From the NCBI GenBank assembly GCA_012729785.1, contig JAAYCL010000036.1:59174-123173 (forward strand): a stretch of DNA of 64,000 nucleotides, written 5' to 3'. Source of the stretch: Chlamydiota bacterium. GTDB lineage: Bacteria; Auribacterota; Tritonobacteria; UBA1439. Under the pieces are notes generated by a model. The model was not told where the DNA came from. It did not search any database and saw only the letters and a program-made list of their open reading frames with translations. The position numbers and the translations under genes were made by a program. Within the stretch, counting starts at the first letter, position 1. Every line of letters begins with the position of its first letter. Shown here one piece after another: positions 34,391 to 64,000 of this stretch.

Positions 34391-34408
34391 TGTCCGCTCT
34401 TCAGCGAG

Positions 34409-34481
34409 CGGGTGTAGCTCAGTGGTAGAGCTCCAGCTTCCCAAGCTGGCTATGAGGGTTCGATTCCCTTCACCCGCTCCA
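34409..34481 (+). tRNA. tRNA-Gly (anticodon CCC/UCC class; the anticodon loop reads as only 6 nt)
   Basis: The acceptor stem GCGGGTG/CACCCGC is followed by T and CCA. The D-arm is GCTC-AGTGGTA-GAGC. The T-arm GAGGG-TTCGATT-CCCTT is identical to E. coli glyU. The anticodon stem CCAGC/GCTGG encloses TTCCAA. Confidence 0.8.
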
Positions 34482-52320: not shown

Positions 52321-52450
52321 GGGGTCGATCGGCGCCGCCGGGGGACGCAACGCGGCTCCTAGACGGAGGCGGAGCGTCGCGACGGACGCGGGCGACGGGG
52401 ACAGACGAAACGATCCGCGAAGATCCGCGGCACGAGCAGGGGAGGCGCAG

Positions 52451-52642
52451 ATGGCCAGGAAGGTGAGGATCGAGGAGGGGCTGTACGGGAAGATCGAGAA
52501 GGCCGCGGCCGCGGCGGGCTATCCGAACGTCGATGAGTTCGTGGTCCATCTTCTCGAGAAGGCCGTCGCCGGAGTCGGCGGCGGAGACGACGACGCGGAA
52601 CGGGTGAAGGAGCGGCTCAGGGGGCTCGGGTACCTCTCATGA
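52451..52642 (+). CDS. Ribbon-helix-helix (CopG/Arc/NikR-N-like) small DNA-binding protein
   Basis: 63 aa: KVRIEEGLYGKIEKAAAAAGYPNVDEFVVHLLEKAV fits a beta-strand, helix, helix ribbon-helix-helix fold. ATGA overlap with the downstream membrane protein. Confidence 0.5.
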   Translation: MARKVRIEEGLYGKIEKAAAAAGYPNVDEFVVHLLEKAVAGVGGGDDDAERVKERLRGLGYLS

Positions 52643-53454
52643 TCAGTGCCGCGGGACAGGCGCTGACGCGCCTCTTCGATCTGATTCTCCTCCCGGCGAG
52701 GGGCGCCGCGCCGGTCTGGGGGATCGCCCTCGCCGCCCTCCTGACGGCCGCGGGCGTCCTCATCTCCTACCGGCTCGTCTCCGACCAGGATGCGATACGC
52801 CGCCTCAAGAAGCGCGTCCAGGGGCACCTCCTCGGCATCTACCTGTACCGGGACGACCCGCGCGCGATGCTCGGCTCCCTCGGCCGGGTCTGGTCAAACT
52901 CCATGCGGTACCTGGCATATTCCCTCGTCCCGTTCGCGGTCGCGTTCGTCCCCGTGGCGCTCGTCTGCCTGCAGCTCGATCTCCGCTACGCGCACCGTCC
53001 GCTTCGCCCGGGTGAACGCATGACCGTCTCCGTCGAGCTCGACCCAAGCGCCCCGCCCCCCGCGCTCTCCTCCACCGGCGGATTGCAGATCGAGACGGCG
53101 CCCCTGGCGATCGGCGGCACCGGGGAGACGAACTGGAGGGTGCGCGCGGTCGCGCAGGGCGCGCAGGCGGTCACGGTCGCCGTCGGCGAGGAGACGCTCG
53201 CCCTCCCCGTCGCGGTCGGCGGGGCGGCGCGGCCGCTCTGCCGCCGGCGGCTTCGGTCCCCCGTGCGGCAGGGGCTTCTCTGCCCCGCGGGCGATCCGAT
53301 ACCCCGCGGGAGCGCGGTGCGGGCGGTGCGGGTCTCCTACCCCCCCGAGCGGGTCCGCCTGGCGGGGATGCGCCTGCACTGGAGCGCCTCCTTTTTCGTG
53401 CTCGCCCTCGCCTTCGGCCTGCTTCTGAAAAGGCCGTTCGGAGTTGATTTCTGA
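52639..53454 (+). CDS. Hypothetical membrane protein (about 4 transmembrane helices), no recognisable family
   Basis: Hydrophobic segments at the N-terminus, middle and C-terminus, with an Ala/Gly-rich soluble loop. Translationally coupled to the ribbon-helix-helix gene. Confidence 0.4.
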   Translation: MISAAGQALTRLFDLILLPARGAAPVWGIALAALLTAAGVLISYRLVSDQDAIRRLKKRVQGHLLGIYLYRDDPRAMLGSLGRVWSNSMRYLAYSLVPFAVAFVPVALVCLQLDLRYAHRPLRPGERMTVSVELDPSAPPPALSSTGGLQIETAPLAIGGTGETNWRVRAVAQGAQAVTVAVGEETLALPVAVGGAARPLCRRRLRSPVRQGLLCPAGDPIPRGSAVRAVRVSYPPERVRLAGMRLHWSASFFVLALAFGLLLKRPFGVDF

Positions 53455-53472
53455 CCTCGGGGCGGCTATACT
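53444..53472 (+). promoter_or_regulatory. Putative sigma70-type promoter, TTGATT -17 nt- TATACT, for cysDN
   Basis: -35 TTGATT at 53444-53449, a 17-nt spacer, -10 TATACT at 53467-53472. It lies 43 nt before the cysD TTG start, with an AAGGA RBS in between. Confidence 0.4.
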
Positions 53473-53514
53473 GTCGCTCTCCAAACAGTGCGCCCGGCAA
53501 CAAAAGGACGACCA

Positions 53515-54318
53515 TTGGACCACCTCTCTGAACTCGAGCACAAGACGATCTATGTCGTGCGGGAGGCGTACAGCCGCTTCCGCAACATCGGGATGCTCTG
53601 GTCGATCGGCAAGGACTCGACCTCGCTCCTCTGGATCTGCCGCAAGGCGTTCTTCGGGAAGGTCCCGTTCCCGGTCATCCACATCGACACCGGCCACAAG
53701 TTCAAGGAGATCTACGCATTCCGGGACCGCTACGCGAAGGAGTGGGGGCTCGACCTGCGGGTCGCGAAAAACGACGCGGCGCTCGCCGCCGGGATGGGGC
53801 CCGACAAGGGGGCGAAGCTCGACTGCTGCCATGCCCTCAAGACGCAGGCCCTGAAGGAGTTCATCGCCCGCGAGAAGCTCGACGCCATCCTCCTCGGCAT
53901 CCGCCGCGACGAGCACGGCATCCGGGCCAAGGAGCGCTACTTCTCGCCGCGCGACGAGAAGTTCGAGTGGGACTACCAGAACCAGCCCCCCGAGCTCTGG
54001 GACCAGTTCAAGTCCAGCAGCGAGGGGCACCACCACCTCCGCGTGCATCCGATCCTCCACATGACCGAGACCGACATCTGGCGTTACGTTCGGCGGGAGG
54101 GGATGCCGGTGGTCGACCTGTATTTCGCCAAGGGGGGGAGGCGCTACCGCTCGATCGGCTGCGCCTGCTGCTGCGCGACCGTGGAGTCGGACGCGGAGAC
54201 CGTCGACGCCGTCATCCGCGAGATAGAGACGACGAACGTCTCCGAGCGTTCGGGGCGGGCGCAGGACAAGGAAGACGCGTACACGATGCAGAAGCTGCGG
54301 GCGCTCGGCTACATGTGA
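53515..54318 (+). CDS. cysD: Sulfate adenylyltransferase subunit 2
   Basis: PP-loop SIGKDS. Colinear with E. coli CysD from its N-terminus ([17 protein letters not shown] versus THLRQLEAESIHIIRE). TTG start with an AAGGA RBS 6 nt upstream. The upstream in-frame GTG at 53488 lacks an RBS. Confidence 0.9.
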
Positions 54319-54343
54319 ACGGCGGGCGGCGAAAGGGAGATCG

Positions 54344-55594
54344 ATGGCGCAGACACGCGGGCGCGAGAACATGAAGATCGTCATCGTGGGCCATATGGAC
54401 CACGGCAAGTCCACCCTCATCGGGCGGCTCCTCTACGATACCCGTTCGCTCTCCCCCGACCGGATGGAGGTCATCCGGAAGACGTGCGAGGAGATGGGGA
54501 AGCCGGTCGAGTTCGCCTTCGTGATGGACCACCTCCGCGAGGAGCGGGAGCGGGGGATGACGATCGACACCGCCCAGACCTTCTTCCACACCGCGCGCCG
54601 CGACTACGTGATCATCGACGCCCCCGGGCACAAGGAGTTCATGAAGAACATGATCACCGGGGCGAGCCAGGCCGAGACGTCCATCCTCATCGTGGATGTG
54701 CATGAAGGGGTGATGGAGCAGACGCGGCGGCACGCCTATGTGCTCGGGATGCTCAACCTGAGGAAGAACATCCTGGTCCTGAACAAGATGGACCTCGTCG
54801 GTTACGACAAGGCGGCGTTCGAGCGCGTGCGCGGCGAGATCGCCGCCTTCCTCAAACGTCTGGGGATCGCCCCCTCGTTCGTCATTCCGGTCTCGGGGAC
54901 CGGCGGGGACAACTTCGCCTCCCCCTCCGGGAAGATGCCCTGGTACAAGGGGCCGACGCTCATCGACGCCCTCGACACCCTCGAAAAGGACCGGGACCTC
55001 AGGGAGAAGCCGCTCCGGATGCCCGTGCAGGACGTTTACGAGCGGGAGGCGGGGCGCATCGTCGCGGGCAGGATCGAATCCGGCTCGCTTCGCGAGGGGG
55101 ACGCGGTGAGGATCTTCCCCGGGGAGGAGCGGGCGACCGTGGCGAAGGTTCTCGAGTTCGGCGCGACGCGCGCCTCCGCGGAGGCGGGGGAGTGCATCGG
55201 CGTGCTGCTCTCGGGGGGGGCGGCGCCGCGGCGCGGCGATCTCCTGGGAGCCCTCGGCGACCCCCCGCGCCTCGGTACGGCGGTCAGCGCGAACCTGTTC
55301 TGGATGGCCGCGGAGGCGTGCGCGGCAGGCGAGAGGCTCACGTTGCGCCTTGGAACGCAGGAGACGCCCTGCAGGATCGAAACGATCGGGAAGAGGATCG
55401 ACTCCTCGACGCTCGACGTCATCGAGGAGAACGCCCGCGCGCTCGAAGAGACCGAGGTGGGCGAGGTCCTGGTCCGCACCGAACGCCCGGTCGCCTTCGA
55501 GCTCTTCAGCGACATCCCCGAATTGGGCCGTTTCGTCCTCGAGAGGGGGAACGACATCGTCGCCGGGGGGATCATCACCCGTCCCGGCCCCTGA
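54344..55594 (+). CDS. cysN: Sulfate adenylyltransferase subunit 1 (GTPase), short form without APS kinase domain
   Basis: G1 [10 protein letters not shown]3 DAPGH and G4 NKMD motifs. 416 aa ending after translation-factor domain III. No CysC domain. Confidence 0.9.
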
Positions 55595-55610
55595 TCCAAA
55601 GGAGACCGGA

Positions 55611-56897
55611 ATGCCTCCCCGCCCGCGCGCGGTCATCGTCGGCCTCGACGGCGTACCCCACCGGCTCATCGAGCGGTACGCCTCCGACGGGACGATGCCG
55701 AACCTCGGGGCGATACTCGCGACCGGGACGCTCCGGAGGATGGCCTCCTCCATCCCGGAGATCTCCTGTGTCGCCTGGAGCACGATCATCACCGGCAGGA
55801 ACCCGGGCGTTCACGGCATCTACGGGTTCATGAACCTGCGGCCGGGCACCTACCAGTTCTCGTTTCCCGCGTTCGGAGACCTGAAGGCGCCTCCGTTCTG
55901 GGAGGAGATGCCGGACACGCGGGCCGCGATCGTCAACATCCCGGGCACCTATCCCGCGCGCACCATGAACGGGGTTACCGTGTCGGGTTTCGTAGCCCTC
56001 GACCTCGCGCGGGCGACATATCCGAAACACCTCATCCCGGAGCTCGAGCGGCTCGGCTACCGGATCGACGTGGACGCGGCCAAGGGCCACTCCGACATCG
56101 ACGCCTTCCTGCGCGACCTCGACGCGACGCTCGAGGCGAGGATCCGGGCGGCCCGCTTCCTGCTCGCACGGGAGCGCTGGGATATCTTCTTCCTCGCCTT
56201 CACCGGGACCGACCGGCTCTCCCATTTCCTCTTCGAGGCGTTCGAGAACGACGCCCACCCCCGCGCCGGCGCCTTCCGGGCGCACTTCAAACGGATCGAC
56301 GGCTATCTCGGCGAGCTGTACGAGACAGTCGGGGCCGACGATCTCCTTGTGCTGCTCTCCGACCACGGCTTCGACCTCGTCGAGACGGAGATCAACGTCA
56401 ACAGGGCCCTCGCCGACGCCGGCTTTCTGAAGATCGCGAGCCCGACACGGGATTCGTTCGAAGGGGTGGGGGAGGGGAGCCGGGCGTTCGCCCTCGATCC
56501 CGCGCGGATTTATGTCAACCTCCGGGGGCGGTACCCGCGCGGATGCGTCGATCCCGGCGACCGGGAGCGCGTCGCCCGGGACGTCGCCGGCGCCCTCCAG
56601 GATCTCTCGGTGAACGGGAGGCCGGTGATCCGCAGCGTCTTCTCGAGAGAGGAGCTCTATGCGGGGAGCCGGATCGCCGAGGCCCCCGATCTCGTGCTCC
56701 TGCCCCGGCGGGGGTTCGATCTGAAGGGGCGCCTCGCCGCACCGGCGCTGGTCTCCAGGGGCGTCTTCACCGGGATGCACACGCACGACGACGCGTTCCT
56801 CTTCGTGCGATCCTCGGCCATCCCGCCGTCGGAGATCCCCGCCGCGCCGTGGGTCGGGGATGTGCGCGCCCTCGTCGAGCGCGGGCTCGCCGGCTAG
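55611..56897 (+). CDS. Alkaline-phosphatase-superfamily protein, type I phosphodiesterase/nucleotide pyrophosphatase-like, cytoplasmic (paralog 3)
   Basis: No signal peptide. VIVGLDGVPH, ASSIPEISCVAWSTIITGRNPGVH and LLSDHGF motifs parallel paralogs 1 and 2. AAAGGAG RBS. Confidence 0.75.
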   Translation: MPPRPRAVIVGLDGVPHRLIERYASDGTMPNLGAILATGTLRRMASSIPEISCVAWSTIITGRNPGVHGIYGFMNLRPGTYQFSFPAFGDLKAPPFWEEMPDTRAAIVNIPGTYPARTMNGVTVSGFVALDLARATYPKHLIPELERLGYRIDVDAAKGHSDIDAFLRDLDATLEARIRAARFLLARERWDIFFLAFTGTDRLSHFLFEAFENDAHPRAGAFRAHFKRIDGYLGELYETVGADDLLVLLSDHGFDLVETEINVNRALADAGFLKIASPTRDSFEGVGEGSRAFALDPARIYVNLRGRYPRGCVDPGDRERVARDVAGALQDLSVNGRPVIRSVFSREELYAGSRIAEAPDLVLLPRRGFDLKGRLAAPALVSRGVFTGMHTHDDAFLFVRSSAIPPSEIPAAPWVGDVRALVERGLAG

Positions 56898-57042
56898 TGC
56901 CGCCGTTTCGGGCGCCTCCGCTTCGTCATCGTGCCCCCCGCCTGTCGAGGAGGAAGGGCGCCGTGCGCCGGATGGGTCGATCCCGGGGCGGGGGAGCGGA
57001 TCGCCCTCAGGCCATCTGACCGATCACGGCGGCCGGCCGTTC

Positions 57043-57051
57043 TGCTACAAT
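57043..57051 (+). promoter_or_regulatory. Putative extended -10 element TGcTACAAT upstream of the nucleotide-sugar dehydrogenase gene
   Basis: TGn plus TACAAT sits 44 nt before the ATG at 57095, in a 197-nt intergenic region. AAAGGAAGG RBS. Confidence 0.25.
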
Positions 57052-57094
57052 ACCCCTTTGCAGCCGGATGCCGCGGCGCTGAAAGGAAGGCAGG

Positions 57095-58744
57095 ATGAAC
57101 GCGAACAAGCGGCTCTACTCGATCAGCCCCTCCGGGGCTAAATTCCCGCTGCCCCGTCCGGAGGAGTACCCCAGGGAGTTCGCCCGGGTGAAGAAACTCG
57201 CCGCGGCCCACCGAAAGGAGAAGCGGGAGGTCGTGGTGGTGATGGGGGTCGGGTTCGTCGGCGCCGTGATGGCGGCGATCGTCGCGGACAGCAGGGGGAA
57301 GGGCGGCAGGCCGTCGAAGTTCGTGATCGGGATGCAGCGCCCGAGCGTCCGCTCCTACTGGAAGATACCGCTCCTCAACCGCGGCGTCCCCCCGGTGGAG
57401 GCGGAGGACCCCGAGGTGGCGCGGATCATCCGCCGCTGCGTCCTCGAGACGAAGACCCTTGTCGCGACCTGGGTCTACGACGTGCTCTCCCTCGCCGACG
57501 TGGTCGTCGTGGACGTCCAGTGCGACTACGCCAAGTACGCCCTCGGCGACGTGCGCAAGGGGTGGGCCGACATCGCCGCCCTCGAGGAGTCGCTGGAGAT
57601 CATCGCCCGGCATATCCGGCCGGAGACGCTGGTCCTCATCGAGACGACCGTGCCCCCCGGGACGACCGAGCAGGTGGCGTACCCGATCATGCGGAAAACG
57701 TTCCGGAAGCGCGGCATCGCCTCCGATCCGCTCCTCGCCCACAGCTACGAGCGGGTGATGCCGGGGAAGGAGTACGTCGCCAGCATCCGCGACTTCTGGC
57801 GCGTCTGCAGCGGGATCAATCCCCGGGCCCGGGAACGGGTGGTGCGGTTCTTGAACGAAATCCTGAACACGAAGCGGTACCCGCTCACCGTCCTGGACCG
57901 TCCGATCGAGTCGGAGACCGCGAAGATCGTCGAGAACAGCTACCGCGCCGCCTGCCTCGCGTTCCTCGACGAGTGGAGTCTCTTCGCCGAGCGGAACGGC
58001 GTGGACCTGGTCAAGGTGATCAACGCGATCAAGGTGCGCCCCACGCACTCCAACATCATCTTCCCGGGCCCCGGCATCGGCGGCTACTGCCTGCCGAAGG
58101 ACGGCGGGCTCGGGATGTGGGCCTACCGGCATATCCTGGGCTTCGAGGACGAGATCTTCAAGATCACCCCGCTCGCCATCGACATCAACGACACGCGAGG
58201 CCTCCATGCGGCCCAGATCACGCGGGACGCCCTGCGGAACATGAACCGCCCGGTCGCCGCGGCGGAGATCCTGCTCCTCGGCGCCTCGTATCGCGAGGAC
58301 GTCGGCGACACCCGCTACAGCGGGTCCGAGATCATTGCGCGGCGCCTCTCGGAGATGGGGGCGGAGATCAGGGTCCATGACCCGTACGTGCGGTCGTGGC
58401 CGGAGCTGGAGAAGCAGGAGTCGTACCCCGGGAAGGGGCACGGGAAGAAGGGGTTCTTCCGCGGGCAAAACCGGCTCGCGGAGGTGCGGGTCTGCAGCGA
58501 CCTCGAGAAGGGGCTCTCCGGCGCGGACGCGGTGATCTTCGCCGTCCGGCACGCGCCGTATCTGCGCCTCGATCCCGACGAGGTGGTCCGCATGATCGGG
58601 GGGGCCGCCGCGATCATCGACTGCTTCGGCATGCTCGACGACGCGAAGATCAAGCGGTACTTCGAGCTCGGCTGCGAGGTGAAGGGGCTGGGGCGCGGGC
58701 ATATCCAGCGGATCAAGGACGAGGTGCGGAGGGAGCGGCGGTAG
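57095..58744 (+). CDS. Nucleotide-sugar dehydrogenase (UDP-glucose/GDP-mannose dehydrogenase family), long form
   Basis: Rossmann motif VVVVMGVGFVGAVMAAIVA and the catalytic GGYCLPKD region. 549 aa, with a roughly 45-aa basic N-terminal extension before the first beta-strand. Confidence 0.85.
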   Translation: MNANKRLYSISPSGAKFPLPRPEEYPREFARVKKLAAAHRKEKREVVVVMGVGFVGAVMAAIVADSRGKGGRPSKFVIGMQRPSVRSYWKIPLLNRGVPPVEAEDPEVARIIRRCVLETKTLVATWVYDVLSLADVVVVDVQCDYAKYALGDVRKGWADIAALEESLEIIARHIRPETLVLIETTVPPGTTEQVAYPIMRKTFRKRGIASDPLLAHSYERVMPGKEYVASIRDFWRVCSGINPRARERVVRFLNEILNTKRYPLTVLDRPIESETAKIVENSYRAACLAFLDEWSLFAERNGVDLVKVINAIKVRPTHSNIIFPGPGIGGYCLPKDGGLGMWAYRHILGFEDEIFKITPLAIDINDTRGLHAAQITRDALRNMNRPVAAAEILLLGASYREDVGDTRYSGSEIIARRLSEMGAEIRVHDPYVRSWPELEKQESYPGKGHGKKGFFRGQNRLAEVRVCSDLEKGLSGADAVIFAVRHAPYLRLDPDEVVRMIGGAAAIIDCFGMLDDAKIKRYFELGCEVKGLGRGHIQRIKDEVRRERR

Positions 58745-58754
58745 GCTTGCGAAG

Positions 58755-59693
58755 TCAGCGACCGGGGTGCGGCGGCGGGGCAGCCGTCTTCCCGCAGACC
58801 TCCCGCGCGACGAAGCGCGCCAGGGAGCCGCAGATGCTCTGCGCCACGTCGTCGGGAACCCCCTCCGGCGTTCTCGATTTGAACCGCATGTCGCACTGGT
58901 CGTTGACATAGTCGACCGAGACCCACCGCATCGAATCGGTCAGGGCGATCTCGGTCGAGAAGAAGTTCAACCGCGCGATCGCGCGGATCTCGCGCGTGAT
59001 CGCCTCCATCCTCCCCAGCCCCCATCGCGCCGCCTCGTCCGTCGTCACCCGTTCGTAGATGTGCCGTTGCGGGTCCCACCAGCAGAGCAGGGTGTCACCC
59101 CCGGCGTAGTAGGCGCGGAACCAGGCCTTCCTCCCCTCGATGAGCCTCGGGACGATATTCTCCTGGACGAGGATCCGGTCGTGCCTGAACTCCATCCGCG
59201 CCGCCTGCACCTCCGCGAGGGAACGCGCGCCCACCAGGACCCCGAGGCCGCCGCCTCCGTGCGCGGGCTTGACGATGAACGGAACCCCCAGCTCCCCGAG
59301 GACGGGGAGCGCCTCCGCGGGGTCGTCGTCCCTGAAGACCGGCAGGATGATTGTGCGGGGGACGTCGATGCCGCGGATCGAGAACTCGTGGTGCATCGCG
59401 GCCTTGTCGATCGCCCGCTCGACGTCGGGGAGCGGGTTCACGCAGAGCGTCTCCGTGTTTCCGAGCGCGGCGGCGAGCGGGACGAAAGCGGGGTTCGTGT
59501 CGGAGGCGCGGTCGAAGAACGCCCTAAAGGCGAGCTCCCCCGAGGCCACCGCGCGCTCGATCTCGGCGAGGCTCCCGGGATCCACGACGCAGGTGGAGAG
59601 GCCGCACCCCAGGCAGTTCCGGCGGAGGAGGGCGATGAAATCCTTGTCGTACTTCCATTCCCAGGCGATGCAGATATCGAGTGTCGTGGTCAT
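58755..59693 (-). CDS. ATP-grasp domain protein (RimK/glutathione-synthetase-like fold), function unknown
   Basis: PFIVKPAHGGGGLGVLVGARS (ATP-grasp glycine-rich loop and Lys) and a downstream acidic Mg-binding region. 312 aa. Confidence 0.6.
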   Translation of the reverse strand: MTTTLDICIAWEWKYDKDFIALLRRNCLGCGLSTCVVDPGSLAEIERAVASGELAFRAFFDRASDTNPAFVPLAAALGNTETLCVNPLPDVERAIDKAAMHHEFSIRGIDVPRTIILPVFRDDDPAEALPVLGELGVPFIVKPAHGGGGLGVLVGARSLAEVQAARMEFRHDRILVQENIVPRLIEGRKAWFRAYYAGGDTLLCWWDPQRHIYERVTTDEAARWGLGRMEAITREIRAIARLNFFSTEIALTDSMRWVSVDYVNDQCDMRFKSRTPEGVPDDVAQSICGSLARFVAREVCGKTAAPPPHPGR

Positions 59694-59733
59694 CGCGTGT
59701 AGCGGCTGCGGGGCGGGGGCGCGCCCTCGGGAG

Positions 59734-60636
59734 TCAGGTGGCGTCGCGTGTCCCCAGCGTGTTGAGTGTTTCGATCTCGCGGGGGCTCAGATACGAGCGG
59801 GCCTCCGGCGCGAGGGGGCGGCCTGTCTCCCTCACCCGGCGGACGAGGTCGCGGTAGACGGCGGTGAGGCCGATCTCGCAGTTGTACGAATTCCCGGCCC
59901 TCAAGAGGATCCCCTTCTTGTAGTGCCTGACCGCCTCCTCGATGCGGCCGCTCTGGAAGCAGCAGCGCCCGAGGTAGGCGTAGGCGAGGGCGAGCTTGAA
60001 ATCTTTGTGCTTGCTCCTGAGGAGCGAAAGATTCTCCTCCATGAAACGCGCCACCGGCTGCAGGAGATCGATCGCCTTGTCGTAATCCCCCTTCCGGTCC
60101 GCGTAGTGTGTCGCCTTGTCGAACGCCCTGAGGAACCAGCCGTACCGGTCGTTGAAGACGCGCAGGAACCTCTCCGGCGGGAGGGGGAAGATCCTCCCCG
60201 CCCCGTCGGGCGCCGGGGCGGTCGGGGCGCCGCAGTCGGGACACGCCTCGGCGGCACGGTCCGCGAGCGTCCCGCACGAAGGGCAGACCATCCGGGCGTC
60301 CGAGACGGGATCCGCCTGCATCCGCTCCGCCGACTCCGTCTCCTCGTGCAGGAGGAGGTGGATCCGGCCCTGTATCCCCTCGAGGTAGTCGGGGCCCTCC
60401 TCCGCCGTCCGGGGGGGCGCCTCGTGCGGGGGTGCCGTCTTCTCGGGCAAGGCGGGGAGGGCGAGCTCGAGCTCGTCGAGTCTCCTCCGAAAGTCGTCAA
60501 GCTCCTTCCCCAGCGCCTCGACCCGCTCCCTGAACTCCGCGAGGCGGGCAAGACAGGCGCGCCGCGCCCCCTGCGCCTCCGGTGCCGCGGAGGCGGATTC
60601 CCCGTCGCCGCGCGCGCGCTGCCTGTCAATCTCCAT
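59734..60636 (-). CDS. Hypothetical protein with N-terminal coiled coil, a CPxCG...CPDCG zinc ribbon and a C-terminal TPR-like domain
   Basis: MVCPSCGTLADRAAEACPDCG is a C4 zinc ribbon. The C-terminus (LALAYAYLGRCCFQSGRIEEAVRHYKKGILL) is TPR-like. It is codirectional with, and lies between, the beta-propeller and ATP-grasp genes. Confidence 0.4.
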   Translation of the reverse strand: MEIDRQRARGDGESASAAPEAQGARRACLARLAEFRERVEALGKELDDFRRRLDELELALPALPEKTAPPHEAPPRTAEEGPDYLEGIQGRIHLLLHEETESAERMQADPVSDARMVCPSCGTLADRAAEACPDCGAPTAPAPDGAGRIFPLPPERFLRVFNDRYGWFLRAFDKATHYADRKGDYDKAIDLLQPVARFMEENLSLLRSKHKDFKLALAYAYLGRCCFQSGRIEEAVRHYKKGILLRAGNSYNCEIGLTAVYRDLVRRVRETGRPLAPEARSYLSPREIETLNTLGTRDAT

Positions 60637-60699
60637 GGGACCCCCTCCGGGCGCGGCCGTGTTTGAAGGATGCGCCGCGTCGCCGGACGGCCGCGGCCG

Positions 60700-62277
60700 T
60701 TACTGTACGATGACCTGCGCCTGGGCGTAGTACTGGTACACCGCGTTCTCGATCGCCGGCCGCGCGCCCTTGGGCACGAACCCCGCGGTCACCGTGTAGG
60801 TTCCCGATATCCCCCGCGGGATCCGGGGGAGCGAAAAGAGGGTGCCCTCGTAGGCGAAATCGAGGCCGTACATCTTCCTGGCCATCGGCCGTATCCCGGA
60901 AACGAGCTCCATCGGCCGGCCGAGGACGAACGAGTAGGTCCCCGCGGGGCCGGAGATGACGCCGTACGCGTCGACGATGAAGCCGAGCGGCTGGATCTGC
61001 ACGCGGACGCTGAACGGCTCCCCTGCGCTGGCCGAGTGGCTGCTGAGGAAAAGGCGGAAACGCGGCGTCGGCACGGGCGTCGGCGACGGGGAGGGGGTCG
61101 GGGTGGGCGAGGGGCCGAACGTGGGCGTGGGCGGCGGAGGGCCGCCGCCGAAGACGTATAGGCACCTGTCGAGGGAACCGACGCTCACCCTGCTGTCGGC
61201 CCAGATCACGGGGGAGGAGGAGACGGCGTCGGAGGCCTTGTAGCTCCACGCGAGGACGCCGGAGGAGGCGATCGCGTAGATGAACGCCCCGTCGCAGCCG
61301 AAGTAGACCATGCCGTCCGAGGAGAGGGCGGGGGAGGAGTTGATCTCGAGGGAGGCGGTGTACGACCAGCGCAGGGCCCCCTTCGAGTCGAGCGCGTAGA
61401 GGATCTTGTCCTTCGACCCGATCCAGATATCCCCCGAGGCGGCGATCGCGGGCGAGGAGTCCACGAGCCCGGCGGTCTGGTAGCTCCAGGAGAAGCCGCC
61501 CGAGGAGGAGACCGAATAGACCCGGTGATCGTGCGCCCCGAAGACCAGGCTGCCGTCGGGCGCGATCGCGGGGGAGGAGTTGATGCCGCCGTACTCGGAG
61601 CTGAAGGACCAGACGAGGGTCCCGACGCTGTTGAGCGCGTAGAAGACGCTGATGGCGGCGCCGTAGTGGATCGTGCCGTCGGAGGAGATCGCCGGGGAGG
61701 AGTGCACCGCGCCGCTGGAGTAGTAGCTCCAGAGGAATGTCCCGGTGGAGGAGAACGCGTACAGGTTCATGTCGTCGCTGCCGAGCGCGATGAGGCCGTC
61801 GTCGGAGATGGCCGGGGAACTCGAGACCGGATCCGCAGCCTGGTAGCTCCAGATGAAGGCGCCGCTTTTCGTCAGGGCGAGGATCCGGGCGCTCTCCGAA
61901 CCGACGACGATCGAGCCGTCATCGGCGATCGCCGGAGAGGAGGCGACCTTGTCCCCGCACTGGTAGCTCCAGAGGAATGCGCCGGCCGGGGTGAAGGAGT
62001 AGAGGCGCGTGTCATCCGACCCCACGTAGAGCTCGCCGTCCGTGCCGAGCGCGACGGAGGAAACGATCCCTTCGCCCGCCTGGTAGCTCCAGGAGAGCGT
62101 TCCGTTGAGCGTCCCCTGGCGGCCGCTGAGGCCGGTGCGCCGCGCATCGCGGCGGAACATCGGCCACTCAGAGGCGGCGGGCTGCGCGCTGCAGGCGGAG
62201 CTTATGAGGAACGGGAGGGCGGTGACGACAGCGGCGACAAGCGCGGGAGCGACGGCAGCGCGCGGCCTCATAGGCAT
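60700..62277 (-). CDS. Secreted PQQ-like beta-propeller repeat protein (BamB/YVTN-type repeats) with a Pro/Thr linker and a C-terminal domain
   Basis: Signal peptide. Eight tandem repeats of about 40 aa, each with LWSYQ...SSPAI..DG.I..GS.D..LYA. A PPPPTPTFGPSPTPTPSPSPTPVPTP linker. A roughly 110-aa C-terminal domain. A GGAGGA RBS lies 6 nt before the ATG. Confidence 0.7.
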   Translation of the reverse strand: MPMRPRAAVAPALVAAVVTALPFLISSACSAQPAASEWPMFRRDARRTGLSGRQGTLNGTLSWSYQAGEGIVSSVALGTDGELYVGSDDTRLYSFTPAGAFLWSYQCGDKVASSPAIADDGSIVVGSESARILALTKSGAFIWSYQAADPVSSSPAISDDGLIALGSDDMNLYAFSSTGTFLWSYYSSGAVHSSPAISSDGTIHYGAAISVFYALNSVGTLVWSFSSEYGGINSSPAIAPDGSLVFGAHDHRVYSVSSSGGFSWSYQTAGLVDSSPAIAASGDIWIGSKDKILYALDSKGALRWSYTASLEINSSPALSSDGMVYFGCDGAFIYAIASSGVLAWSYKASDAVSSSPVIWADSRVSVGSLDRCLYVFGGGPPPPTPTFGPSPTPTPSPSPTPVPTPRFRLFLSSHSASAGEPFSVRVQIQPLGFIVDAYGVISGPAGTYSFVLGRPMELVSGIRPMARKMYGLDFAYEGTLFSLPRIPRGISGTYTVTAGFVPKGARPAIENAVYQYYAQAQVIVQ

Positions 62278-62376
62278 CCTCCCCTGTGGGCGACGCTATG
62301 AGCATAGCACAGCCGCCCCCCCGCACGGAAGGGGGAAGCGCCGCCCTCTGTCCGCGTTCCGTCCTCGCGAATCGGG

Positions 62377-62404
62377 CCGCGGAGCGGCTCACCGCCCTCC
62401 GCGG
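62377..62404 (-). other. GC-rich stem-loop (8-bp stem CCGCGGAG/CTCCGCGG, 12-nt loop) between the PLP-enzyme and beta-propeller genes
   Basis: A perfect inverted repeat 40-67 nt downstream of the PLP-enzyme stop on the - strand. There is no U-tract, so it is not a canonical intrinsic terminator. It may be an attenuator, a processing site or an mRNA stabiliser. Confidence 0.3.
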
Positions 62405-62443
62405 CCTCTCGTTGCCGCAGCGTGCGGACAACCGTCACGCCGG

Positions 62444-63928
62444 TCAGAGCTTCTTGAGCAGCCCGGTCCGCTCGTTGAACTCCGTGATCAACGCGTCGAT
62501 CTCGTCCGCCTGGCCCTGGATCCGGTCCCAGTAGGCCGGGTAGTCGTACCACTGGGCGTTGAGCTCCTTGAGCTCGCGCCCCTGCTGCTCGATCCAGGTG
62601 TAGTACTTCAGGTTGTGGACGCGCTTGCGGTCCCAGTACCCGAGCTCGGCCATCCGGTCCGTCGTGACAGCCATCAGACAGCGGTGGTAGTCGCGCGCCG
62701 CGTCGAGCTCGGTGTAGGCCCCGAACTGCTCGCGGTACTCCGTGACGCGGCTCCCGTAGAGTTCCATCGAGTCGGTGAGGACCGTCAAGACGACGTCGTG
62801 GGCCCCGAGCTCGTACCATTTTGCGAACTTGATGGCGGAGAGGATGTTGCCGACGCCCGAGATCCCGATCAGGTCGAGGCGGTCGATGCACGCCTTCGAC
62901 ACCCCCTGCTTTTTGAGGTACTCGCGGCCGGACGGCTCGTTGAAGAGCCGGATGACGTTCACGCAGTCGTTGTCGTCGGCGGCGATGATCATGTCGGTGT
63001 TCCGCATGTTGTGGATCCAGGGGACGTGCTTGTCGCCGATCCCCTCGATCCGGTGCCCGCCGAAGCCGTTGAGGAGGAGCGTCGGGCACTGCCACGCTTC
63101 GCCGGCGGCGATCTTGCTGGTCGGGAAGCGCTTCTTGAGGTAGTCGCCGGCGGCGATCGTCCCGGCGGATCCGGTCGTGAGGACAACGCCCGCATACCGG
63201 TCGCCGTTCCGCATCTCCTTCTTCAGCACCTCCTCCATCGCGTGGCCGGTGACCTCGTAGTGCCAGAGGTGGTTGCCGAACTCGTCGAACTGATTGAAGA
63301 TGACGATATCGTCCTTGCGCGTCCTGCGCAGCTCCCAGCACTTGTCGTAGATCTCCTTGACGTTCGACTCGCCGCCGGGCGTGGCGATGACCTCGCCGGC
63401 GACCTGCTTCAGCCACTCGAAGCGTTCCTTGCTCATCTCCTCGGGGAGGATGGCGATCGACTCGCAGGCGAGGAGATGGGAGTCGTAGGCCCCGCCGCGG
63501 CAGTAGTTGCCGGTGGAGGGCCAGACGGCCTTCTGGGCGGTCGGGTCGAACTGCCCGGTGACGAGGCGCGGGACGAGGCAGCCGAAGCTCGCCCCGACCT
63601 TGTGCGCCCCGGTCGGGAACCATTTGCCCACGAGGCAGATGATGCGCGCCTCCGTCCCGGTGAGCTCCTTCGGGAGCTCGAGGTGGTTGACGCCGCCGTA
63701 GAGGCCGCCGTTCGCGACCGGTTCGTTTTTCCAGGTGATCCGGAAGAGGTTGACGGAGTCGAAGTCCCAGAGGCCGGTCTTCTTCAGGCGCGCCTTGATC
63801 TTGGCGGGGACGCGCGACGGGTCTTTCTGCTCCTTGAAGGTCGGGATGATGATGTTGCGCTCCCTGCAGCGCTGGACCGCCTTCTCCAGCTTCTTCTTGT
63901 CGACCTTCAGGTCAATCATGCCGATCAT
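62444..63928 (-). CDS. Fold-type II PLP-dependent enzyme of the cysteine synthase (CysK/CysM) family, with a roughly 110-aa N-terminal and roughly 80-aa C-terminal extension
   Basis: Colinear with CysK. The PLP-lysine region FPTGAHKVGASFG corresponds to SFSVKCR. The glycine loop is VLTTGSAGTIAAG. The substrate loop is IEGIGDKHVP. The C-terminal ISGVGNILSAIKFAK resembles ISSGAAVAAALK. GGAGGGG RBS. Confidence 0.7.
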   Translation of the reverse strand: MIGMIDLKVDKKKLEKAVQRCRERNIIIPTFKEQKDPSRVPAKIKARLKKTGLWDFDSVNLFRITWKNEPVANGGLYGGVNHLELPKELTGTEARIICLVGKWFPTGAHKVGASFGCLVPRLVTGQFDPTAQKAVWPSTGNYCRGGAYDSHLLACESIAILPEEMSKERFEWLKQVAGEVIATPGGESNVKEIYDKCWELRRTRKDDIVIFNQFDEFGNHLWHYEVTGHAMEEVLKKEMRNGDRYAGVVLTTGSAGTIAAGDYLKKRFPTSKIAAGEAWQCPTLLLNGFGGHRIEGIGDKHVPWIHNMRNTDMIIAADDNDCVNVIRLFNEPSGREYLKKQGVSKACIDRLDLIGISGVGNILSAIKFAKWYELGAHDVVLTVLTDSMELYGSRVTEYREQFGAYTELDAARDYHRCLMAVTTDRMAELGYWDRKRVHNLKYYTWIEQQGRELKELNAQWYDYPAYWDRIQGQADEIDALITEFNERTGLLKKL

Positions 63929-64000
63929 CTCGCCCCTCCGTGTAATGGTGACCGCCCGCCCCTTCTGCGGGGAGGACGCGAAAGCTGATATTAGCACAGG

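Follow-up and report, generated by a model that had tools for sequence, protein, structure and literature searches.

A gene at the edge of a 64,000-nucleotide stretch of DNA (the window) from a Chlamydiota bacterium (contig JAAYCL010000036.1, positions 59,174 to 123,173) encodes a pyridoxal 5'-phosphate (PLP) dependent enzyme that combines a core of the cysteine synthase (CysK) type with large extensions at both termini. We are highly confident that this protein belongs to a distinct extended CysK-fold family, and we show here that genes of this family associate with the ureido-cleaving half of the reductive purine pathway, where they stand in the place of the lyase YgeX. This association is robust, reciprocal and found across phyla, and a functional link of the protein to the purine and ureido catabolic module is probable. 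Our preferred but still tentative reading of its activity is that of a beta-lyase, or of an enzyme for beta-replacement, with 2,3-diaminopropionate or 3-ureidoalanine as substrate, which would replace YgeX. The original prediction, made from the DNA letters, had proposed a cysteine-synthase-fold enzyme with large terminal extensions at positions 62444-63928, and it is borne out by a complete open reading frame of 494 residues plus stop, a ribosome-binding site and full-length homologs.

The family is a large, well-defined, strongly conserved and uncharacterised branch of a heavily studied superfamily. A word-indexed search returned at least 8000 matches, of which the best 120 are 486-502 residues long and cover the protein to 98-100% at 71-100% identity. 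The similarity is full-length and colinear and includes both extensions, placing the protein within a family of about 490 residues. Among GTDB species genomes members are 64-74% identical across bacterial phyla (Chloroflexota, Thermotogae, Atribacterota, Bipolaricaulota, Halanaerobiales, Synergistota, Spirochaetota, Acidobacteriota and delta-proteobacteria) and Asgard archaea (Thor- and Hodarchaeota, joined by Heimdallarchaeota in a further homolog search). Clustering at 50% leaves few full-length representatives, at 34-61% identity, among them one metamonad eukaryote and two alpha-proteobacterial plasmids. The eukaryotic homolog, from the anaerobic protist Aduncisulcus paluster (P0127/P0286, 562-571 residues, 44-45% identity), suggests lateral transfer of the family into eukaryotes. 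Public names are limited to 'pyridoxal-phosphate dependent enzyme', 'pyridoxal-5-phosphate-dependent protein subunit beta' and 'cysteine synthase', and no characterised member was found among the named relatives in public records. Membership in named enzyme families was judged by curated NCBIfam cut-offs, and the protein stays far below those of cysK (TIGR01139, 80 bits against 351), cysKM (TIGR01136, 73 against 344), CysM (NF008735, 28.5 against 413), SbnA (TIGR03945, 28 against 350) and the cysteate synthase CapA (NF053679, 22 against 600). TIGR03844, a further model in the test for the SbnA family and cysteate synthase (CapA; ThrC-type), is absent from its NCBIfam matches. Hence, of the earlier suggestion of a specialised activity, the general idea stays plausible, while SbnA and cysteate synthase as its examples do not hold.

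The only Pfam match of the protein is PALP (40 bits), and the closest solved structures by sequence are cysteine synthases (E 1e-12). Every catalytic element of CysK can be mapped onto it: the PLP lysine, the asparagine loop, the glutamine (Q213, aligned with CysK Q142), the glycine-rich phosphate loop and the N1-serine (Table 1). The active-site comparison also supports the lysine, glycine loop and substrate loop that had been noticed at the outset. The predicted Schiff-base lysine, Lys110, is conserved to at least 90% even in relatives at 34-45% identity. Residues S138, T139, G140 and N141 of the substrate loop are invariant in alignment A1, and Y142 is conserved to at least 90%, with F in three sequences. 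The segment GHRIEGIG is aligned with GPHKIQGIG of CysK in profile and pairwise alignments. In CysK, Ser272 makes a hydrogen bond to the pyridine nitrogen of PLP, and active sites of this type form an aminoacrylate intermediate, so that the beta-substituent of an alanine skeleton is eliminated or replaced. Judged from its sequence, the protein is PLP-dependent and retains the full CysK-type active site. One distant clade at 39% identity (protein P0149 in alignment A6) carries Gln where the PLP lysine is expected, and its active-site loops are degraded; this clade may represent a catalytically dead paralog.

The extensions are not loose Lys-rich tails but belong, as conserved and mostly helical segments, to an ancient family. 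Compared to CysK, the protein has about 60-75 additional residues at the N-terminus, where residues 76-77 align with CysK 14-17, and about 75-100 at the C-terminus. The N-terminal extension had initially been put at about 110 residues, which is roughly the position of the lysine, and the C-terminal one at about 80; an insertion of 17 residues has to be added. Conservation of the extensions equals that of the core, and key positions are kept at 34-45% identity, with the motifs IIIPT and NLFRITWKN in the N-terminal and HNLKYYTW(V/I)EQQG, QWY and I-D..I..FN in the C-terminal part. The structure check that had been called for gives mostly helical segments in the AF2 model, four short helices in the N-terminal extension and C-terminal helices spanning residues 391-493 (pLDDT 68-95). 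By sequence, the extensions alone match nothing in Pfam or the PDB, and in the structure comparison no solved chain covers either of them. The view that both are rich in lysine is true for the N-terminal extension (15%), but not for the C-terminal one (5%). Their G+C content is lower than that of the window, as had been noted (0.60-0.65 against 0.70). Since the G+C content at third codon positions stays at 0.95-0.98, the dip reflects amino-acid composition and not foreign DNA, and horizontal transfer as its source was ruled out by the third-position value of 0.96.

An indication of function comes from the genomic context. We analyzed 85 loci centred on the family gene, namely 80 GTDB species loci and five from contig look-ups, in which open reading frames were clustered and pathway markers counted within 6 kb. 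At least one marker is present in 51 of the 80 GTDB loci and two or more kinds in 26, mostly co-directional with the family gene. Most frequent is a threonine-synthase-like (ThrC-like) protein (40/80), followed by D-hydantoinase/dihydropyrimidinase (23/80), carbamoyltransferases resembling ornithine carbamoyltransferase (OTC), often in two copies (21/80), Xdh subunits (18/80), carbamate kinase (13/80), a YgeY-type M20 hydrolase (12/80) and SsnA-type amidohydrolases (10/80). Representatives of SsnA, YgeY, hydantoinase and carbamate kinase pass their NCBIfam cut-offs; in a fused Xdh FAD/Fe-S protein the 2Fe-2S part lies above the cut-off and the FAD-binding models below. The association is seen in Chloroflexota, Thermotogae, Bipolaricaulota, Halanaerobiales, Bacillota and Neomarinimicrobiota, and also in Spirochaetota, Synergistaceae, Terriglobia and delta-proteobacteria. 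In a cultured Aminobacterium the gene order is family gene, TRAP transporter, Amidohydro_3 (the family of UacY), M20, ThrC-like and carbamate kinase. None of the 85 loci contains a YgeX ortholog; the only weak YgeX matches fall on the ThrC-like gene. A reciprocal sample of 80 metagenome loci was centred on SsnA, after true SsnA had been separated from a second amidohydrolase type of about 24% identity. Here, a homolog of our protein is found in 7/80 loci, both at 61-69% identity and as a distant clade at 42-44%, and YgeX in 1/80, while the two never occur together (0/80). The gene orders include SsnA, family gene, YgeY, OTC as well as YgeY, OTC, carbamate kinase, ThrC-like, family gene, SsnA. 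Thus, the position in reductive urate-pathway clusters that is typical of YgeX is taken by the family described here.

Three of the neighbouring proteins deserve a closer description. The ThrC-like PLP protein (L176 4333-5571 (-); L001 5789-7027; L088 4932-6170; L179 7841-9094) has about 412-424 residues and an N-terminal Cys-rich, zinc-ribbon-like motif and scores above the NCBIfam 'threonine synthase' cut-offs. Its gene lies in catabolic carbamoyltransferase/carbamate kinase clusters beside the family gene in many phyla, and the protein is probably not the housekeeping ThrC. The OTC-like carbamoyltransferases (L088 7615-8631 and 8757-9767 (-); L176 6993-8009 (-)) reach none of the curated cut-offs for ornithine, putrescine, N-acetylornithine or YgeW enzymes, and in many cases a pair of paralogs is found next to carbamate kinase. 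They are candidate enzymes for the phosphorolysis of both ureido groups of 2,3-diureidopropionate. The second amidohydrolase type (L012 505-1863, L014 183-1541, L018, L036, L066 7448-8842) adjoins the family gene or Xdh genes in Thermotogae, Bipolaricaulota, Spirochaetota and others, and might act as another ring-opening enzyme.

Recent work has described the reductive urate (2,8-dioxopurine) pathway, together with what YgeX does in it, and has shown that the E. coli region ygeW-ygeX-ygeY-hyuA-yqeA ... ssnA-xdhD encodes it (Li et al., PMC12507026; Liu et al., 10.1101/2025.04.24.650524; Percudani, PMC12990295). At its end, 2,3-diureidopropionate is converted to 2,3-diaminopropionate and further to pyruvate by the PLP lyase YgeX (PMC12507026; 10.1101/2025.04.24.650524; PMC12990295). 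The conserved neighbours of our family are the genes of this very region. The context points to anaerobic purine and ureido-amino-acid catabolism rather than to sulfur amino-acid chemistry. In this pathway, the ureido groups of 2,3-diureidopropionate are removed by YgeW-like carbamoyltransferases, yielding carbamoyl phosphate and, via carbamate kinase, ATP; the same step is open to YgeY or UacY-like hydrolases. We tentatively propose that the remaining C3 amino acid, 2,3-diaminopropionate or 3-ureidoalanine, would then be converted by the extended CysK-like enzyme towards pyruvate and ammonia, the equivalent of the role of YgeX in E. coli. It would probably act together with the adjacent ThrC-like protein. 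Where a cluster holds two OTC-like genes along with carbamate kinase, both ureido groups may be conserved as ATP. A further-reaching idea, which we consider doubtful, is that the two PLP proteins form an unrecognised two-enzyme terminal module for urate or purine breakdown that, with two carbamoyltransferases and carbamate kinase, replaces YgeX in most environmental anaerobes. Its carriers may include Chloroflexota, Thermotogota, Synergistota, Atribacterota and others, with homologs in Asgard archaea and one anaerobic protist, and the conserved extensions may in such a module form a new substrate pocket or a partner interface. Neither a CysK-like nor a ThrC-like enzyme is mentioned in the urate-pathway papers. 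In the work of Li et al., any PF00291 protein near SsnA counted as 'YgeX' (PMC12507026), and hence their counts would include both our family and the ThrC-like one. The elucidation of the pathway dates only from 2025 and is limited to E. coli and clostridia. If the extended CysK-like family is indeed the terminal enzyme of most environmental anaerobes, thousands of genes are wrongly called "cysteine synthase" in pathway maps and by annotation pipelines, a function is gained for a PLP enzyme family of very high conservation, and a two-carbamoyltransferase, ATP-yielding variant of purine fermentation becomes testable.

Several observations weigh against a role of the protein as the YgeX replacement. 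The family-centred loci are those most similar to our protein and not a random sample, and synteny among Anaerolineae inflates the counts. About one third of these loci, including all from Asgard archaea, have no pathway gene within 6 kb, and the window's own 62 kb holds none. In Eremiobacterota, one homolog is instead preceded by an oligopeptide ABC operon, and alpha-proteobacterial homologs (42-44% identity) are found in another context with TauE/SafE, an amino-acid ABC transporter and RidA. Furthermore, CysK-type enzymes normally take L-amino acids. The pathway intermediates have been proposed to be of D configuration (PMC12990295). Finally, at one SsnA locus (L118) the ThrC-like gene is present without the family gene, and the ThrC-like neighbour could itself be the substitute for YgeX. 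A related explanation, which we regard as unlikely, gives the degradation of diaminopropionate to the ThrC-like enzyme and leaves the extended CysK-like protein an auxiliary task, such as turning D- into L-diaminopropionate by racemisation or carrying out a beta-replacement, for example to serine or another intermediate. This is at odds with six loci in which the family gene has no ThrC-like gene within 6 kb (L012, L014, L016, L019, L066 and L125), and the active site is CysK-like and not racemase- or dehydratase-like.

It is improbable that the protein is a true cysteine synthase or sulfhydrylase, using O-acetylserine or O-phosphoserine with sulfide or a related sulfur nucleophile, with extensions that serve regulation or oligomerisation. 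All catalytic motifs of CysK are retained, CysK is the top-scoring characterised family, homologs are labelled 'cysteine synthase' by JGI (automatic names), and in the source lineage CysD and CysN, both above cut-offs, are encoded 7-10 kb away. However, the cysK score given above falls far short of the cut-off, and across about 165 loci the conserved neighbour families contain no gene of the cysE or sulfite-reductase type, but purine and ureido catabolic genes instead. The CysDN genes of the window stand with a nucleotide-sugar dehydrogenase on the opposite strand, with five genes between them and the family gene.

Very unlikely in our view is a beta-lyase for some other beta-substituted amino acid, which might be sulfonated, as cysteate is, or derived from peptides or N-carbamoyl compounds, with the link to purines being secondary. 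This would fit the plasmid homologs of Rhizobium and Bosea, which lie near TauE/SafE genes (directly upstream and about 7 kb away, respectively), with an M20 peptidase and an amino-acid ABC transporter in Rhizobium and RidA in Bosea. It would also fit the Eremiobacterota homolog behind its Opp transporter and the Aminobacterium TRAP transporter, where the stretch of the cluster that the contig covers, starting just upstream of the family gene, shows no SsnA, Xdh or hydantoinase gene. Nevertheless, both the main clade, which is that of our protein, and another at 42-44% identity lie within SsnA/Xdh/YgeY clusters, and the TauE/SafE annotation is generic. The two plasmid loci come from aerobic hosts: on the Rhizobium sp. 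NXC24 plasmid (L172 11959-13458) the homolog lies directly 3' of a gene of the TauE/SafE 'sulfite exporter' family, and on that of Bosea vaviloviae it is found at L173 12070-13404. They hint that the alpha-proteobacterial clade uses a different beta-substituted substrate. An enzyme that handles selenium, for example forming or breaking selenocysteine for nearby selenium-dependent molybdenum hydroxylases, is highly improbable: Xdh-type genes adjoin the family gene in several loci, the E. coli cluster is classed as selenium-linked by the NCBIfam names of SsnA and YgeY, and CysK is able to use selenide, but the strongest neighbours are ThrC-like, OTC-like, carbamate kinase and YgeY genes and not those for Xdh maturation, and no SelD, YqeB or YqeC family is prominent among the conserved neighbours.

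In the source organism, the upstream side of the gene lies outside the window. It is covered by three public contigs that match window positions 52444-64000 with 100% identity and reach beyond the window end, and the exact protein is present on many public contigs. Translation starts at the ATG at 63926-63928 (-). The mechanical open reading frame extends to a GTG at 63997 (517 residues); this longer start is unsupported, because 494-residue homologs cover the ATG form to 100% and the rest begin at MIDL, four residues further in. On the extending contigs, a 284-nt leader 5' of the gene holds three tandem direct repeats of 33 nt (AGGTGTGCACYTTTCAACCTYAAATCCTTRAAA), which are located just past the window end at positions 9802-9900 of L176 (position 9929 of which corresponds to window position 64000). 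The repeats stand in an AT-rich part about 100-200 nt upstream of the ATG, the motif has no occurrence anywhere in the window, and they look like a set of putative operator sites. Downstream of the gene, a G+C-rich hairpin (Table 1) may mark the transcript end; the scan for consensus terminators did not pick it up. Riboswitches and other RNA elements were found neither upstream in the window nor in eight related loci, apart from one tRNA and an unrelated flavin mononucleotide (FMN) riboswitch. The riboswitch (76 bits, L004 8299-8480 (-)) lies beside a Chloroflexota homolog, where it precedes, and belongs to, an ABC transporter operon that includes an NMT1-family binding protein. A tRNA-Gly(CCC) at 34408-34481 (+) is the sole RNA gene detected in the window.

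Next upstream of the leader, the three contigs encode an uncharacterised, secreted-looking protein of 397 residues. Further upstream, 2-7 kb from the gene and on the opposite strand, follow an OTC-like carbamoyltransferase, an 88-residue open reading frame, carbamate kinase, the 412-residue ThrC-like PLP protein and OTC. In a relative at 87% identity, curated cut-offs are exceeded by carbamate kinase and one OTC but by neither of two further OTC-like proteins; the ThrC-like protein lies narrowly above the one for 'threonine synthase'. In relatives at 92% and 79% identity, the family gene is divergent from genes for the Xdh FAD, 2Fe-2S and Mo subunits. On the downstream side, the window encodes a beta-propeller protein, a TPR protein, an uncharacterised protein, a nucleotide-sugar dehydrogenase, a PF01663 protein, CysN and CysD. 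The first of these (60700-62277 (-), 525 residues) begins like a signal peptide, continues with about eight PQQ/BamB-like beta-propeller repeats and a Pro/Thr-rich linker, and ends in a domain without family match; it is syntenic 3' of the family gene in all close relatives. CysD and CysN (sulfate adenylyltransferase, 53515-55594 (+)) adjoin the PF01663 phosphodiesterase-family protein and the nucleotide-sugar dehydrogenase (55611-58744), a neighbourhood that looks more like sulfated-glycan synthesis than cysteine synthesis.

Table 1. Features of the extended CysK-like gene and its flanks, in window coordinates.
Feature	Position	Strand	Basis
Complete coding sequence, 494 residues plus stop, extended CysK-fold PLP enzyme	62444..63928	(-)	Open reading frame list, sequence, full-length homologs of 485-494 residues
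GGAGG ribosome-binding site	63935..63939	(-)	6 nt 5' of ATG, read from sequence
N-terminal extension, residues 1-75	63704..63928	(-)	Alignments A1 and A6; four short helices (AF2); 15% Lys
CysK-like fold-type-II PLP core, residues 76-394	62747..63703	(-)	
Lys110 codon, predicted PLP Schiff-base lysine (FPTGAHK)	63599..63601	(-)	Aligned to the lysine of TGSIKDR, PDB 5b53
S138-T-G-N-Y142, equivalent of the CysK substrate-carboxylate 'asparagine loop' (TSGNT)	63503..63517	(-)	hhalign
T252-G-S-A-G-T257, equivalent of the CysK GTGGT PLP-phosphate loop	63158..63175	(-)	hhalign; invariant in A1
17-residue insertion relative to CysK, residues 333-349	62882..62932	(-)	Gap in CysK rows, hhalign and phmmer
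Ser357 codon (GISG), equivalent of CysK Ser272	62858..62860	(-)	hhalign; invariant in A1
C-terminal helical extension, residues 395-494	62447..62746	(-)	Alignments A1 and A6; AF2
G+C-rich hairpin, no T tract	62368..62411	(-)	33 nt 3' of stop; RNA fold -48.6 kcal/mol, z -2.65

Compared to the characterised members of the superfamily, the protein stands apart in several respects. CysK proteins (e.g. PDB 4aec and 8srt) share only 20-26% identity with it and lack about 180 of its residues. Where CysK has GIA and AGF, the family carries the specific residues C143-R144 and D299-K300-H301. Moreover, CysK serves cysteine biosynthesis, whereas the gene context here is catabolic. A standard cystathionine beta-synthase (CBS; PDB 6c4p and 5mms) was rejected, in agreement with the original prediction, in which heme or CBS domains could not be recognised: neither kind of domain is present, as Pfam finds only PALP and the scans of the extensions are empty, the score is far under the cut-off (TIGR01137, 54 bits against 510), and the C-terminal extension is helical and unrelated to the CBS (Bateman) domains. 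SbnA and CmnB, which act in 2,3-diaminopropionate biosynthesis (PDB 5d84 and 8if7), are in contrast biosynthetic enzymes that use O-phosphoserine and glutamate, have no extensions and are encoded in siderophore or antibiotic clusters. Another lead was OrtB, the PLP subunit of 2-amino-4-ketopentanoate thiolase, which we take to be a PF00291 protein of about 470 residues; this lead is neither supported nor excluded. Compared by description only, OrtB is similar in length and carries the same old generic label 'pyridoxal-5'-phosphate-dependent protein beta subunit'. No OrtB model appeared in the NCBIfam scans of the window protein and ten distant relatives, no relative carries the name, and a homolog search seeded with the outlier P0161 gave the same unnamed family only. 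Among the conserved neighbours of the family loci there are no OrtA-like or ornithine-fermentation genes. A parallel is seen in YgeX (diaminopropionate ammonia-lyase; E. coli b2871; PDB 4d9g), which belongs to the same PLP fold-type-II superfamily and holds the same place in reductive urate-pathway clusters. The two proteins are not orthologous by sequence, and we propose that their correspondence would be one of functional analogy.

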